64,000 nucleotides of DNA from a virus. The DNA lies in IMG/VR virus record IMGVR_UViG_3300011335_000809, positions 51,570-115,569 of that record; one strand, 5' to 3'. Positions 383 to 51,432 of the stretch are shown here, one piece after another; the first letter of the stretch is position 1, and each line of letters opens with the position of its first letter. The notes below the pieces were generated by a model. The model did not search any database, was not told the origin of the DNA, and saw only the letters and a program-made list of their open reading frames with translations. The position numbers and the translations under genes were made by a program.

Positions 383-1225
383 TTACTTTTCATAAAGATT
401 GATAAAATCTTTTCCGTATTTTGATGTCACATAATCAATATACATCTTAATTTTGTGTTTGTCAATCACATTTAATTTAAATGGAAAAGAATTTATTTTT
501 GCTTTATTTTTATTATCTAAATAACCTTTTATTTCAAAATATTCATTTGTTGATTCAAGAATAAAGTCTGGATAAAAATTATAATTGTTATTATTGAACT
601 TATAGGGGAATCCCTCAGTATTTCTTTTAAATTTTATATTATGTTCTAAATTGAAAATTACCCACGCCAATTCCCAACTGCTATTACAATAATAACCTTT
701 ATACCATCCTTGTTTACCTCTTCCGCCTTTTTCACGATAACCTCCTCGTTTACCTTTCAAAAGTCCGTTTACTTTTACATATGTATTTCTACAAATTTGA
801 GAACAATATATCTGTTTTGATTTTTCTGTTTTTAAAAAATTGTAATTACAATGTGGACATAATATAGATTTACGTTTTTTTACTCTAATCTGTTTTTTTG
901 CTAATTCAGATAATCTTTTTTTGCCTTCTATGTCCCATTTTTTGTGACCTCCAAACTTTTGGTTTTCAATAGATGCACATTTTGTAGAACAAAATTTATT
1001 ATTTCTTCTAGAATATTCTAAATCAATATTGCAATATTCACACTTATTTGGATTTAGATTATATTTTTCTACTCTAAATAGTTTTAAACGTGGTGAAATT
1101 GTTTCTCCATTAAACTCTACAGAACATTTATTAGAACAAAAATGATTGTTAGTTCTTTTTATTTCACTTTTATATTTTAAAAACTCAATATTACATTTTT
1201 TACAATTTACTAATATTTTACTCAT
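383..1225 (-). CDS. Zinc-ribbon repeat + PD-(D/E)XK putative homing endonuclease
   Basis: Three CxxC...CSxxC modules; C-terminal SSWE..FYPDF..EIKG motif; ATG at 1225 follows TATTTATTA. Confidence 0.75.
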   Translation of the reverse strand: MSKILVNCKKCNIEFLKYKSEIKRTNNHFCSNKCSVEFNGETISPRLKLFRVEKYNLNPNKCEYCNIDLEYSRRNNKFCSTKCASIENQKFGGHKKWDIEGKKRLSELAKKQIRVKKRKSILCPHCNYNFLKTEKSKQIYCSQICRNTYVKVNGLLKGKRGGYREKGGRGKQGWYKGYYCNSSWELAWVIFNLEHNIKFKRNTEGFPYKFNNNNYNFYPDFILESTNEYFEIKGYLDNKNKAKINSFPFKLNVIDKHKIKMYIDYVTSKYGKDFINLYEK

Positions 1226-2155: not shown

Positions 2156-2191
2156 TCAAAAACCCGTCATTCTTTTTAAAAGTGACGGGTT
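2156..2191 (-). terminator. Intrinsic terminator of attenuator 1
   Basis: AACCCGTCA..TGACGGGTT hairpin followed by a U tract. Confidence 0.85.
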
Positions 2192-2218
2192 GTATATTTT
2201 TAGCAAACAACCACTCAC

Positions 2219-2272
2219 TCAACTTCCGGATGGGAGTTGACTGGCTTGACTAGGTTGTGAAATTAAATTCAT
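2219..2272 (-). CDS. Leader peptide MNLISQPSQASQLPSGS (putative attenuator of tRNA array 1)
   Basis: 17-codon ORF just upstream of antiterminator/terminator; rich in S/Q/P/L/G, matching downstream tRNAs. Confidence 0.75.
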   Translation of the reverse strand: MNLISQPSQASQLPSGS

Positions 2273-2350: not shown

Positions 2351-3304
2351 TTAGGATACTTTCTCAAATCCCGTCATATTAATTACGTTCAGGTTTTGAC
2401 CAATAATAGCCTCTACTTGAGTTTTTCTACTGAGTAACCAAGCAAATGATCCAACTTTATACCACGCGCCCAATAGTGCCAATTCACTACCTACCTGCAC
2501 AAATATTGGATTTCCAGAATCACCACCTCTTTGTGTCTCATAATACGACTGTGATGTGCCAAATACTGAAGCTTCTACATCAGCAACTGCATCAATTAAT
2601 CGGGTCATATCTCCAATTGAAACTTTTTTGTCTTGATTGAGGAACAAAACAGGTAACCGTAAAGTTATGAATTGGACCCCCATCACACTATTAATTTCAG
2701 TTTTGATGTATTGTTGCCAGTTGTCTGGTAATACTGAATATATCTTCAGACTACTATCAATTGATTGATCAAGAGTTCCAATTGCAATATCACTTCCATC
2801 AATCTTGTCGATCTTGATGATGTTGTATTTGAAGGTCACATTGTTATCGTTAACAAAAAAGATTTCTGAATTTGGCAAATAAGGAACGTGTGCAGACAAT
2901 AAGACATGTTTATTAGTAATAAGAGTTCCACCTCCAACACCACCGAGGCCATTTATACCAGCTGCAGTGCCTGTCCATTTATAAGATATCACCCAAGAAG
3001 CAGAATTTCGAACCCAAGAAAAAGTAGATTGGATAAACGCACTGAATAAACTACGGTCTTTGCTGGTCGCCATCATTTTGATCAGTGTGGATTTGATATT
3101 AGATACCCAGTTAGTACGTACACTACCACTACTACCACTACTACCACCTATACCGCTACTACCAACTGTTTTACTAGATATCACTTTTGGTAACAATGCA
3201 TTAGATATAAGTTTAGTTACTACAGATGTTGATTGAAGAATTATTGTTTTTAATGAGGAAGTGCCTATTCCGCTACTACCACTTGATCCACTTGTCGATG
3301 CCAT
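2351..3304 (-). CDS. Trypsin-like serine protease with Gly/Ser-rich N-terminus
   Basis: GGGTLI..HVLLSAH, DIAIG, GDSGNP catalytic triad motifs. Confidence 0.8.
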   Translation of the reverse strand: MASTSGSSGSSGIGTSSLKTIILQSTSVVTKLISNALLPKVISSKTVGSSGIGGSSGSSGSVRTNWVSNIKSTLIKMMATSKDRSLFSAFIQSTFSWVRNSASWVISYKWTGTAAGINGLGGVGGGTLITNKHVLLSAHVPYLPNSEIFFVNDNNVTFKYNIIKIDKIDGSDIAIGTLDQSIDSSLKIYSVLPDNWQQYIKTEINSVMGVQFITLRLPVLFLNQDKKVSIGDMTRLIDAVADVEASVFGTSQSYYETQRGGDSGNPIFVQVGSELALLGAWYKVGSFAWLLSRKTQVEAIIGQNLNVINMTGFEKVS

Positions 3305-3395: not shown

Positions 3396-4094
3396 TTAAA
3401 ATGTCAATCTCAAACCGCCGGAATATACTACATCGCCACTAAGTTCACGGGTAGCCCAATTATATTTAGTAGCATTAAAATTGTTGTCATACCATCCAGC
3501 ACTTGCAAATGGAGTCAATACACCAAATGAAGTTTCAAAAGGACGAGTCACTGACAACTTTGCATTTACAGCTGTATAGTCTTCTACCTTACCATATTCA
3601 ACAGCAGGAGTTACAACAAATCCAAATGGAAGTTTTTGAGCACGTTCTGCGCCAATAAACACACCACTTTGTTTCAAGTCTACATCATAAAATCCACGAA
3701 GATATGGTGTTACAAACTTATTTGGCAAAGCCAATTTAACACCAAATTCAGTACTATTTGGAATACCAAAGTTACCTGCTTGGTGACGAGTTACAGTTGT
3801 ATCCAATCGTGCGGAAAATACATCCTTCCATACGTTTACTTCCTTGCCAGCACCCAGCGTCCAATGCGACTGATCTAGATCACCATTAGCCAATAGAGTA
3901 CCACCCAAGTATACATCTGCATACTTCAGACTCTTTACAGCACCTACACCAACAAATGCTGCGCCTTCAGAACGAGATACACCATTGACGATGTATTGGT
4001 TGTTATACCCAGCTTCAACTGAGATGTTTGAGGTGTCGCCTGCAGATACAGCCAAAGCGGCCAATACTGACAATAATACTAATACTTTCTTCAT
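3396..4094 (-). CDS. Outer-membrane beta-barrel protein (TIGR02001/putative porin-like)
   Basis: Signal peptide, Y.NQYI..GVSR motif, alternating beta strands, C-terminal Phe. Confidence 0.7.
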   Translation of the reverse strand: MKKVLVLLSVLAALAVSAGDTSNISVEAGYNNQYIVNGVSRSEGAAFVGVGAVKSLKYADVYLGGTLLANGDLDQSHWTLGAGKEVNVWKDVFSARLDTTVTRHQAGNFGIPNSTEFGVKLALPNKFVTPYLRGFYDVDLKQSGVFIGAERAQKLPFGFVVTPAVEYGKVEDYTAVNAKLSVTRPFETSFGVLTPFASAGWYDNNFNATKYNWATRELSGDVVYSGGLRLTF

Positions 4095-11827: not shown

Positions 11828-11903
11828 TGGGGTGATATACGAGTGCTGCCCTCGTTCCGTGAGTTTCACAAACTCAAATGCTAACTGTTACACCAATATC
11901 ACC
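11828..11903 (-). tRNA. tRNA-His(GUG)
   Basis: TGAGT-TTGTGAA-ACTCA, G-1:C73, CCA. Confidence 0.92.
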
Positions 11904-11991: not shown

Positions 11992-12045
11992 GGTCTAAAT
12001 TTTCTTTGCTTATTTACTTATAACAATAACCTCAGTTATGTTATT

Positions 12046-12187
12046 ATCGCCCTATAGGTTCTGTATTTCAGCATAACACCTACGGACCAATCAATTGATT
12101 TTCCCAGTTCTCACCTTATCATCGGTCTTTCCGACTCACTGGCGGAGGCTCAACAGATGGAGTTTCAAGCCCTTCCTTTATCTTCTA
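12046..12187 (-). ncRNA. Structured RNA at head of tRNA array 2 (homolog of 2011-2119)
   Basis: Same conserved core with an extra GAAA-tetraloop insertion; directly after TTGACA..TAGACT promoter. Confidence 0.7.
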
Positions 12188-12311: not shown

Positions 12312-12348
12312 AAAAATAAAAAAACCGTCACTTTTTAGTGTGACGGTT
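12312..12348 (-). terminator. Intrinsic terminator of attenuator 2
   Basis: AACCGTCAC..GTGACGGTT hairpin + U tract. Confidence 0.88.
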
Positions 12349-12379
12349 GATATTGTTTTGAAGTTACCTAAGTTTGAGT

Positions 12380-12457
12380 CTATACAATATCACCGCCAAC
12401 ACATTCACAATTCGTAAATGTATCCCAACGTTTAATATGTGTATACTGTACTCTCAT
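12380..12457 (-). CDS. Leader peptide MRVQYTHIKRWDTFTNCECVGGDIV (putative attenuator of tRNA array 2)
   Basis: 25-codon ORF whose 3' end GGCGGTGATATTGT is complementary to ACAATATC(A)ACCGTC, which includes the terminator 5' arm. Confidence 0.8.
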   Translation of the reverse strand: MRVQYTHIKRWDTFTNCECVGGDIV

Positions 12458-51021: not shown

Positions 51022-51432
51022 ATGAACCGAAGAAAATTTATAACATCAACCGCATTTGCATTGCCATCCGTAGCAGTGTTTGGTGCAATATCAACGCAAC
51101 CCAAGACTTATAGAAGTTTAACCAGTCTTTTTTCCAATGAGGAGATGACGGAGTGGTGTAACAAAAATGGTATGTATTATGCCAAAGATGATGAACTAAA
51201 TAAAAAGTTTTTTAAACATCAAATAAATGATGACTTAGTTTTTATGGATAAACATTTGTTTGATAGAGATAAGTCACTTAGTTATATAAATGGAAATGAA
51301 CCCCTATTCTGGAATAAAGGTTATAAGCGTGTAGTAATAGACATTTTTACAACAGATGATAAAGAAATTTATTATTGGCCACAAAATAGTGTTGTGATTA
51401 GTTGTGTCTTTGGTGAAGAATACAACAAATAA
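51022..51432 (+). CDS. Putative Tat-exported protein
   Basis: MNRRKFI + hydrophobic stretch (twin-arginine signal). Confidence 0.6.
   Translation: MNRRKFITSTAFALPSVAVFGAISTQPKTYRSLTSLFSNEEMTEWCNKNGMYYAKDDELNKKFFKHQINDDLVFMDKHLFDRDKSLSYINGNEPLFWNKGYKRVVIDIFTTDDKEIYYWPQNSVVISCVFGEEYNK

Follow-up and report, generated by a model that had tools for sequence, protein, structure and literature searches.

A conserved module with the architecture of a leader-peptide attenuator precedes a tRNA array of an uncultured freshwater giant phage

Are the tRNA arrays of large phages simply expressed, or are they regulated by demand? The question is raised by a short leader module in front of tRNA array 1 in the window studied here, a stretch of 64,000 nucleotides (nt) that corresponds to bases 51570-115569 of the 115.6-kb virus record IMGVR_UViG_3300011335_000809 of the IMG/VR database. 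The leader module, the tRNA arrays and the other features listed below were all found on the minus strand. An earlier reading of the locus from its letters alone (the sequence-only reading) had proposed that a leader-peptide attenuator governs the array. In our study, the order of the elements, their conservation, their energetics and the amino acid composition of the leader agreed with this model, whereas a predicted tRNA-Leu(UAA) was missing and the module was not the sole control of the array. We consider the chance to be about even (roughly 0.5) that the module is a ribosome-mediated leader-peptide transcription attenuator which heads array 1 and gauges the supply of tRNA. Both the energetics and the comparison of relatives give good support to the architecture of an attenuator. 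The translation of the leader, the stalling of the ribosome, the control of read-through and any physiological trigger are what we infer from the sequence, and a tRNA-sensing function is a reasonable reading of the same evidence.

The leader open reading frame (ORF; 2219-2272) was found where it had been claimed, with exactly the codons listed. It contained 17 codons followed by TGA and encoded the peptide MNLISQPSQASQLPSGS, with the ATG at 2272-2270 and the TGA at 2221-2219. Ser, Gln, Pro, Leu and Gly accounted for 13 of the 16 residues after the start, as the sequence-only reading had counted, and the figure rose to 14 when Ala was included. Promoter P1 (2282-2310) was present directly upstream of the ORF and consisted of TTGATT (2310-2305), a 17-nt spacer and TATATT (2287-2282). 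The distance from the end of the -10 hexamer to the ATG was 9 nt in the window (8-9 nt overall), and the predicted message is therefore near-leaderless.

Relatives were gathered by searches anchored on the downstream leader RNA, the core of the ORF, the terminator and the non-coding sequence GGTTGTTTGCT. They amounted to 108 loci on contigs of viral and metagenomic origin, among which the module occurred in 44 distinct sequences; a scan with a 15-nt pattern of the leader RNA gave mostly chance matches and contributed at least three further true loci. The ATG, the frame and the stop were retained across the 108 loci, with 17 codons in all but a few of them, and the hexamers and 17-nt spacing of P1 were kept despite wholly different spacer sequences. 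The sequence GGTTGTTTGCT, the terminator and a second promoter (P2) were also conserved. The variable parts of the module were codons 2-4, the hexamer right after the stop, an A-rich spacer and the terminator loop. The mean column identity was 88% in the relatives, and the genes upstream of the module varied from locus to locus. Of the distinct variants in codons 5-17, 11 were synonymous and 11 non-synonymous, against an expected synonymous share of 23% (p = 0.005), and the frequent variants were synonymous, such as TCC/TCA/TCT/TCG. In locus L170 the stop was lost, and the next in-frame TGA adjoined GGTTG. The leader ORF may be translated, as far as these patterns of change indicate. In L014, L015 and L222, P1 and the first leader codons were replaced by a 66-amino-acid (aa) ORF (L015, 8992-9192), which was fused in frame to the final 12-13 codons of the leader and ended at the same stop.

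The module contained four pairing regions and one hairpin. Region 1 (2253-2259), CACAACC in codons 5-7, has its partner in the GGUUGU(UUG) of region 2 and would act as the anti-antiterminator; the ACAACC that had been noticed inside the ORF lies at 2258-2253, and its pairing was invariant in the relatives. Hairpin H1 (2220-2239), formed by CAACUCCC, the loop AUCC and GGAAGUUG, spans codons 12-17, overlaps the stop codon and may be a pause hairpin. Region 2 (2202-2218) starts with the variable hexamer right after the stop, followed by the invariant GGTTGTTTGCT, and provides the 5' strand of the antiterminator. Region 3 (2182-2193) has two alternative partners, region 2 in the antiterminator and region 4 in the terminator. 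Region 4 with its U-tract (2152-2169) forms an intrinsic terminator with 2191-2183. The strands proposed by the sequence-only reading were all located, with the antiterminator formed by GTGAGTGGTTGT at 2218-2207 and ACAACCCGTCAC at 2193-2182, and the terminator by the arms AACCCGTCA (2191-2183) and TGACGGGTT (2169-2161), followed by TTTGATTTT (to 2152).

The terminator consisted of a G+C-rich stem of 9 base pairs (bp) and a second short stem followed by the U-tract, with a free energy of -13.4 kcal/mol in the window. Before the 3' arm of the terminator is made, the minimum-free-energy fold was the antiterminator, in which 2218-2207 paired with 2193-2182 (-11.2 kcal/mol). Its energy ranged from -7.7 to -13.1 kcal/mol over 17 variants, against -12.7 to -16.1 kcal/mol for the terminator in the relatives, so the antiterminator is competitive; it covered 7-10 nt of the 5' arm of the terminator. 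The addition of this 5' arm to the upstream RNA yielded a gain of -9.9 to -10.1 kcal/mol, dinucleotide shuffles gained -2.5 to -3.0 +/- 1.9 kcal/mol, and only 0-3 of 500 shuffles matched the observed gain of the leader. Among the 25 terminator-like hairpins of the record, the leader terminator ranked first for an upstream competitor (-9.8; the next was -5.7 and most were near 0). In most variants the full leader had the 1:2 helix (CACAACC:GGUUGU, enclosing H1) in its minimum-free-energy fold, and all variants folded into the same three alternatives (1:2, 2:3 and 3:4). In a ribosome-footprint model that extends from -15 to +12 around the A site, the antiterminator was allowed for A-site codons 2-14, faded at codons 15-16 and was gone at codon 17 and the stop. 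Region 2 begins right behind the stop; the distance from the stop to GGTTG was commonly 6 nt, and 0-5 nt in rare variants.

The antiterminator was conserved over the 44 sequences, with five invariant core pairs and three more pairs kept through one-sided compatible changes. Positions 3-5 of the hexamer were R-Y-G in 37-43 of the 44 sequences, complementary to CGU of the terminator arm with a one-base bulge, and the remaining variants used a second register in which GUGA pairs with UCAC. A single consensus register was rejected, as it failed to fit all variants. Since two registers are in use and the 3' strand is invariant, one shuffle control of the antiterminator was uninformative. All 17 natural hexamer contexts were better than the mean of the 4096 possible hexamers (percentiles 0.0002 to 0.41), and in L135 a change of GGUUG to AGUUG was offset by its hexamer. 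Compensatory two-sided changes were found in three of the eight pairs of H1, with variant stems in L077, L135, L170 and L181; L181 contained three extra bases, in frame, in the H1 loop. The six pairs of the 1:2 helix were 99.6% paired over the 44 sequences and almost never varied, and the terminator was 100% paired.

The tRNA genes of array 1 (111-1978) were Val, Pro, Leu, Ser(UGA), Ser(GCU)-like, Gly(UCC), Gln and Pro-like, with a 280-aa ORF between Gly(UCC) and Gln. Most of the tRNAs that the sequence-only reading had listed, namely Val, Pro(UGG), Leu(UAG), Gly(UCC) and Gln(UUG), were found by ARAGORN and Rfam. The listed Ser(UGA) was placed at 1627-1709 by alignment to relatives with compensatory changes. 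The Ser(GCU)-like gene (about 1440-1540) and the Pro(UGG)-like gene (111-179) were present but atypical, and scored below the thresholds of the programs. Relaxed settings of ARAGORN did not recover the Ser tRNAs, which the alignment to relatives did. Of two tRNAs predicted to lie to the left of the window, Ala was present, as Ala(UGC), whereas Leu(UAA) was found nowhere in the record. Beyond the left edge of the window, at a distance of 190-390 nt (record bases 51178-51420), the array continued with Ala(UGC) and Gly(GCC).

In 29 distinct arrays that follow the leader module, only Pro, Leu, Val, Gly, Gln, Ala and Ser tRNAs were found. Fourteen of the 16 leader residues belong to this array-1 set (binomial test against the phage proteome, 1.5e-4), and only two of 843 short ORFs of the record reached the same fraction. 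The leader was also matched to the content of the array in homologous loci, as in the divergent leaders MKSLLQPSLAGQSPVMGG and MNLFSQPSLVSQSPAGY. Neither of the two outcomes that would have refuted the sequence-only reading, a non-competitive or unconserved antiterminator and a leader unrelated to the content of the array, was seen. Nine of the 11 non-synonymous variants stayed in the set, where 35% were expected. The out-of-set residues of L077 and L170 were confined to the last codons, which are partly or wholly non-sensing in the footprint model; the two out-of-set residues of the window leader, N2 and I4, lie inside the sensing range. The match which the sequence-only reading had described holds at the level of amino acids but is loose at the strict codon level, where third positions drift freely. 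At codon 15 all four UCN codons (UCC, UCA, UCU and UCG) occurred.

A few further observations concern the tRNA genes and their surroundings. Several genes missed by ARAGORN (111-179, 1440-1540 and 11831-11902, minus strand) contained unusual T-loops of the GGGCAGCAC type; the Pro(UGG)-like gene had C at position 33, and the gene at 11831-11902 reads as His(GUG). Upstream of tRNA-Ala(UGC) there was a promoter-like site of its own (TTGACA-17-TAAGAT), and a TATATATT motif preceded tRNA-Gly(GCC), so the tail of array 1 may be transcribed separately. In relatives, a transfer-messenger RNA (tmRNA) followed Gly(GCC); no tmRNA was found by ARAGORN in the present record. The 280-aa ORF (386-1225, minus strand) between tRNA-Gly(UCC) and tRNA-Gln had its own TATTTATT start motif, was Cys-rich and without Pfam match, and may be a homing-endonuclease-like insertion. 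Insertions were found at varying places within the arrays of relatives.

An internal replicate of the design was present in front of array 2 (12319-12457), where a near-leaderless ORF2, a 14-bp antiterminator and a terminator at 12348-12323 were found. ORF2 contained 26 codons including the stop (12457-12380), with the promoter TTGACG-17-TATATA and the ATG at 12457. The terminator stems of the two arrays were near-identical, as had been pointed out, and the two leaders were unrelated with complementary amino acid sets (Fisher's exact test, 2.4e-4). In the array-2 antiterminator, GGCGGUGAUAUUGU paired with ACAAUAUC-A-ACCGUC over 14 bp, and the gain was -12.2 kcal/mol against -3.0 +/- 2.1 kcal/mol in shuffles. 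ORF2 carried a clear coding signature, with indels of 3 and 6 bases that preserve the frame and with synonymous changes inside YTHIKRWDTFT. The nucleotides of its antiterminator 5' strand were conserved across two reading frames (L149, L154 and L017), which indicates a role of the RNA. In 19 distinct arrays after the ORF2 module, the tRNAs were Thr, Arg, Trp, Lys, Asn, Phe, Glu, Ile, His, Cys, Asp and Tyr, and a few of these arrays also contained Gln(CUG), Val or Leu. ORF2 contained each of the 12 amino acids of array 2 (3.5e-4; one of the 843 short ORFs does so); the set-2 fraction of ORF2 taken alone was not significant (18/24, p = 0.07). The split of the tRNAs between the two arrays is stable across the relatives. 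In the array 2 of L002 (2645-2720), L065, L150 and L158, ARAGORN called a tRNA with a four-base anticodon (CUCU), which may be an expanded anticodon loop.

The elements suggest the following mechanism. Transcripts would begin at P1 or enter from the upstream gene, and would carry the 17-codon ORF and the three helices, which exclude one another. In the absence of translation, region 1 would pair with region 2 and the terminator (3:4) would form. A ribosome that reaches the stop codon would cover region 2, and the terminator would form as well. A ribosome stalled with its A site at codons 2-14 would block region 1 and leave region 2 free to form the 2:3 antiterminator, and the polymerase would then continue through P2 into the tRNA genes. 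Since almost every codon from 2 to 14 specifies Ser, Gln, Pro, Leu or Ala, for which array 1 carries tRNAs, slow decoding would raise the matching tRNAs above the basal level from P2. A broader idea, which we put forward tentatively, is that giant phages monitor decoding capacity by codon class, with each array headed by a 'roster' mini-gene written in the amino acids of that array, so that a stall leads to the replacement of scarce host tRNAs. Under this idea, scarcity of a class of host tRNA would stall the ribosome, the stalled ribosome would disable the terminator and the phage would make the replacement tRNAs; the shortage might arise from a mismatch of codon usage or from host anticodon nucleases. 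It would be a homeostatic form of tRNA-sensing attenuation for which no precedent was found in the literature.

Promoter P2 (2119-2146) was found downstream of the terminator, as the own promoter of the array. It consisted of TTGACA, 16 nt and TGgTAAATT with an extended -10, and in the relatives its hexamers were kept with a variable spacer. In four metatranscriptome runs, which came from three studies, assembled contigs covered the leader. Contigs bridged the leader, terminator, P2 and tRNA-Val in runs X16 (2224 to 1899 and beyond) and X15 (2335 to 1899), and a contig of X18 extended from 2201 to 1899. In the same four runs, the upstream gene (2605-3038) had zero cover in three and little in the fourth, which argues against DNA carry-over. 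RNA molecules that cross the terminator therefore exist. An abundant contig ending at 2165 was considered as an RNA end and rejected; it was taken as an assembly break, and a C/T polymorphism at 2166 adjoins it.

Several points weigh against a tRNA-sensing attenuator. The strong, conserved sigma-70-type P2, which the sequence-only reading does not mention, stands between the terminator and the tRNA genes, and we know of no classical attenuator with a promoter in this place. Since P2 is downstream of the terminator, the array is independent of read-through, and the switch would add to a basal level and not be its sole control. In the ribosome-free RNA, before region 4 emerges, the antiterminator state was slightly more stable than the 1:2 state (-20.7 against -18.8), so termination without translation would depend on the order of folding. 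The 1:2 and 3:4 helices are near-invariant, and neither therefore provides evidence from covariation. The leader ORF is without a Shine-Dalgarno sequence, so that initiation would need a near-leaderless or AU-rich 5' end; such a sequence is generally missing from the genes of the phage, where a Shine-Dalgarno-like motif was found in 12% against a background of 7%. The synonymous sites of the leader are also unpaired in the RNA, which confounds the coding and the RNA constraints, and by our estimate the in-set bias of the substitutions is less striking if transitions are favoured. The UUA codon is without a tRNA, and GCC, CUC and UCC are poor matches to U34 anticodons and would need superwobble. 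Locus L017 contained array 1 without the leader module. The RNA evidence consists of assembled contigs, which give neither transcript ends nor levels.

Three other explanations were weighed. A translation-coupled switch could be real and yet not be tuned to the tRNAs of the array, so that it reports general translation capacity or sets the amount of a short leader RNA or peptide; the amino acid match would then be a by-product of a G+C-richer, structure-constrained sequence (CAACC, GGAAGUUG). This would accord with the G/C-rich codons of the array-1 amino acids, with a leader that must encode three helices, with the free drift of third positions up to all four UCN codons at codon 15, with the set-2 fraction of ORF2 that is not significant alone (18/24, p = 0.07), and with P2 as an independent promoter for the array. 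However, two non-homologous leaders match their own arrays, and each is top or tied for top among the 843 short ORFs on its measure. The match also persists in divergent peptides of array 1 (L185, L181 and L077) and of array 2 (L148 and L155), and codons 8-11, which are single-stranded, are conserved without a pairing role. We regard an untuned switch as unlikely.

The module could also be an independent small gene, for a 17-aa peptide or a small RNA of about 125 nt, with an ordinary terminator that insulates P2 and an antiterminator that is incidental. It does have its own promoter and terminator with P2 directly after, its layout resembles that of a small RNA (a single-stranded stretch, hairpins and a U-tail), and in one metatranscriptome the contig depth of the leader was comparable to that of the tRNA leader, which fits an abundant short RNA. 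We hold this to be quite unlikely, as an insulating terminator needs no competitor, yet the competitor here is the strongest of 25 and is kept in several registers. Even in L170, where the original stop was lost, the stop that is used instead keeps its place relative to region 2. A small RNA would not need the conserved ATG, frame and stop position, and array 2 shows the same design in an unrelated sequence. A relic 3' end of a longer upstream gene with its terminator, or a chance ORF, conserved by close kinship, is very improbable and already disfavoured. The last 12-13 codons are indeed the C-terminus of the 66-aa ORF in L014, L015 and L222, and the relatives are close, with the mean column identity of 88% given above; but the module is retained amid freely varying flanks and spacers, and behind upstream genes that are not the same at every locus. 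More than 100 loci conserve the promoter and the ATG, H1 covaries, and both the composition and the antiterminator stand out in the statistics.

Multivalent leaders are known in enterobacteria, such as those of thr (Thr and Ile) and ilvGMEDA (Ile, Leu and Val), and the trp leader provides the textbook geometry. The phage module shares with these leaders a short leader ORF (predicted to be translated in the phage) and the 1:2, 2:3 and 3:4 alternatives, and as in the enterobacterial leaders the stop is placed so that a terminating ribosome would mask region 2, and several amino acids are represented in one leader. Unlike them, the phage module precedes tRNAs and not biosynthetic enzymes, is near-leaderless and without a Shine-Dalgarno sequence, and is separated from its genes by the promoter P2; its leader codons are mostly single or spaced and of many kinds, not runs of one codon. 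It has no sequence or Rfam similarity to known leaders, and Rfam searches at the gathering score and at E up to 1 matched nothing over 2150-2310, T-box families included, with tRNAs as the sole matches in the region. T-box riboswitches couple transcription attenuation to the tRNA pool, bind uncharged tRNA directly and control synthetase or amino acid genes; they need no translation, unlike the ribosome sensing proposed for the phage module. To our knowledge, leader-peptide attenuation is known for amino acid, synthetase and resistance genes and not for tRNA genes, and our search of the literature found no paper on the leader-peptide control of tRNA genes.

Two published systems come near parts of the phage module. 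Leaderless short ORFs with polycysteine in mycobacteria act as sensors, in which a stall at the cognate codon remodels the downstream RNA (bioRxiv 10.1101/834739); there a ribosome-binding site is unmasked for the translational control of Cys metabolism genes, whereas here an intrinsic terminator precedes tRNAs. In Anabaena PCC 7120, a silent long tRNA array (the trn operon) is reported to be induced by translational stress (PMC8421152; PMC10272220). The trn operon resembles our reading of the phage locus in coupling an accessory tRNA array to translation trouble, which makes it the nearest published link found, and differs from the phage module in that its repressor is a protein, TrcR. None of the terms attenuator, leader peptide and terminator occurs in the 2021 paper on the Anabaena trn operon.

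If the attenuator is real, phage tRNA arrays would be regulated by demand and not simply expressed. It would bear on why large phages carry near-complete sets of tRNAs, that is, on codon adaptation versus escape from tRNA-targeting defences, and the division of amino acids between two matching leaders would explain the stable composition of the arrays across the relatives. The 125-nt module would then be a compact natural sensor of the decoding speed of chosen codons. It is portable to a reporter, which makes the question directly testable.

Between P2 and tRNA-Val, which starts at 1978, a conserved structured leader RNA (2007-2103) was found that is common to array 2, where it occurs at 12043-12172 (minus strand) ahead of the first tRNA. 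It contained TTGAAACTCYATCTG and a GTGTTAT...AGAACC hairpin, the tip of which covaries in relatives, for example GCTGAAATACAG versus CCTCGTAGAG. In L131 and L138 an unrelated 130-nt sequence was present in its place, and in L017 the structured RNA occurred without P2. It had no match in Rfam. A hammerhead ribozyme in this RNA was considered and rejected, as CUGAUGA was not conserved and no Rfam match was found.

The record has a G+C content of 33% and was judged to be 34% complete, which suggests a full phage of roughly 300 kb; two related contigs were 296 kb and 304 kb long. Runs with a matching stretch were from river, lake and other freshwater metagenomes, and a few were labelled marine. 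The source is an uncultured freshwater giant phage. A search of the genome records of cultured phages with the region gave matches to tRNA-Val in three records only and no relative of the module, and Pfam searches with eight neighbouring proteins gave nothing usable for the type of phage or its host.

The phage was also found to possess a gene-start motif of its own, TATTTAT[AT], which preceded 22 ORFs of at least 60 codons and ended mostly 2-6 nt before the ATG. These sites were without a -35 hexamer and without a Shine-Dalgarno sequence, and examples in the window are at 1225-1237, 5088, 5784 and 7277 (minus strand). Of 100 ORFs with a length of 100 aa or more, 21 carried the motif, compared with 1% of all ATGs. 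It looks like a phage-specific promoter that would yield leaderless mRNAs. The identity of P1 with this motif was considered and rejected, as the motif lacks a -35 and lies 3-5 nt from the ATG, whereas P1 has a conserved -35. With this -35 at 17 nt and a distance of 8-9 nt to the ATG, P1 is sigma-70-like in appearance, and an account of the tandem promoters as a late promoter followed by an early P2 is therefore without support. A plus-strand promoter from two TTGACT repeats in the ORF was also rejected, as its -10 was poor and all local genes are on the minus strand. Upstream of the module, a 317-aa protein (2354-3304, minus strand) contained Gly/Ser-rich repeats and had no Pfam match. It was preceded by a 232-aa protein (3399-4094, minus strand), which had the look of a secreted beta-barrel and no Pfam match, and the gene of which had deep RNA contig cover in one run (X16).

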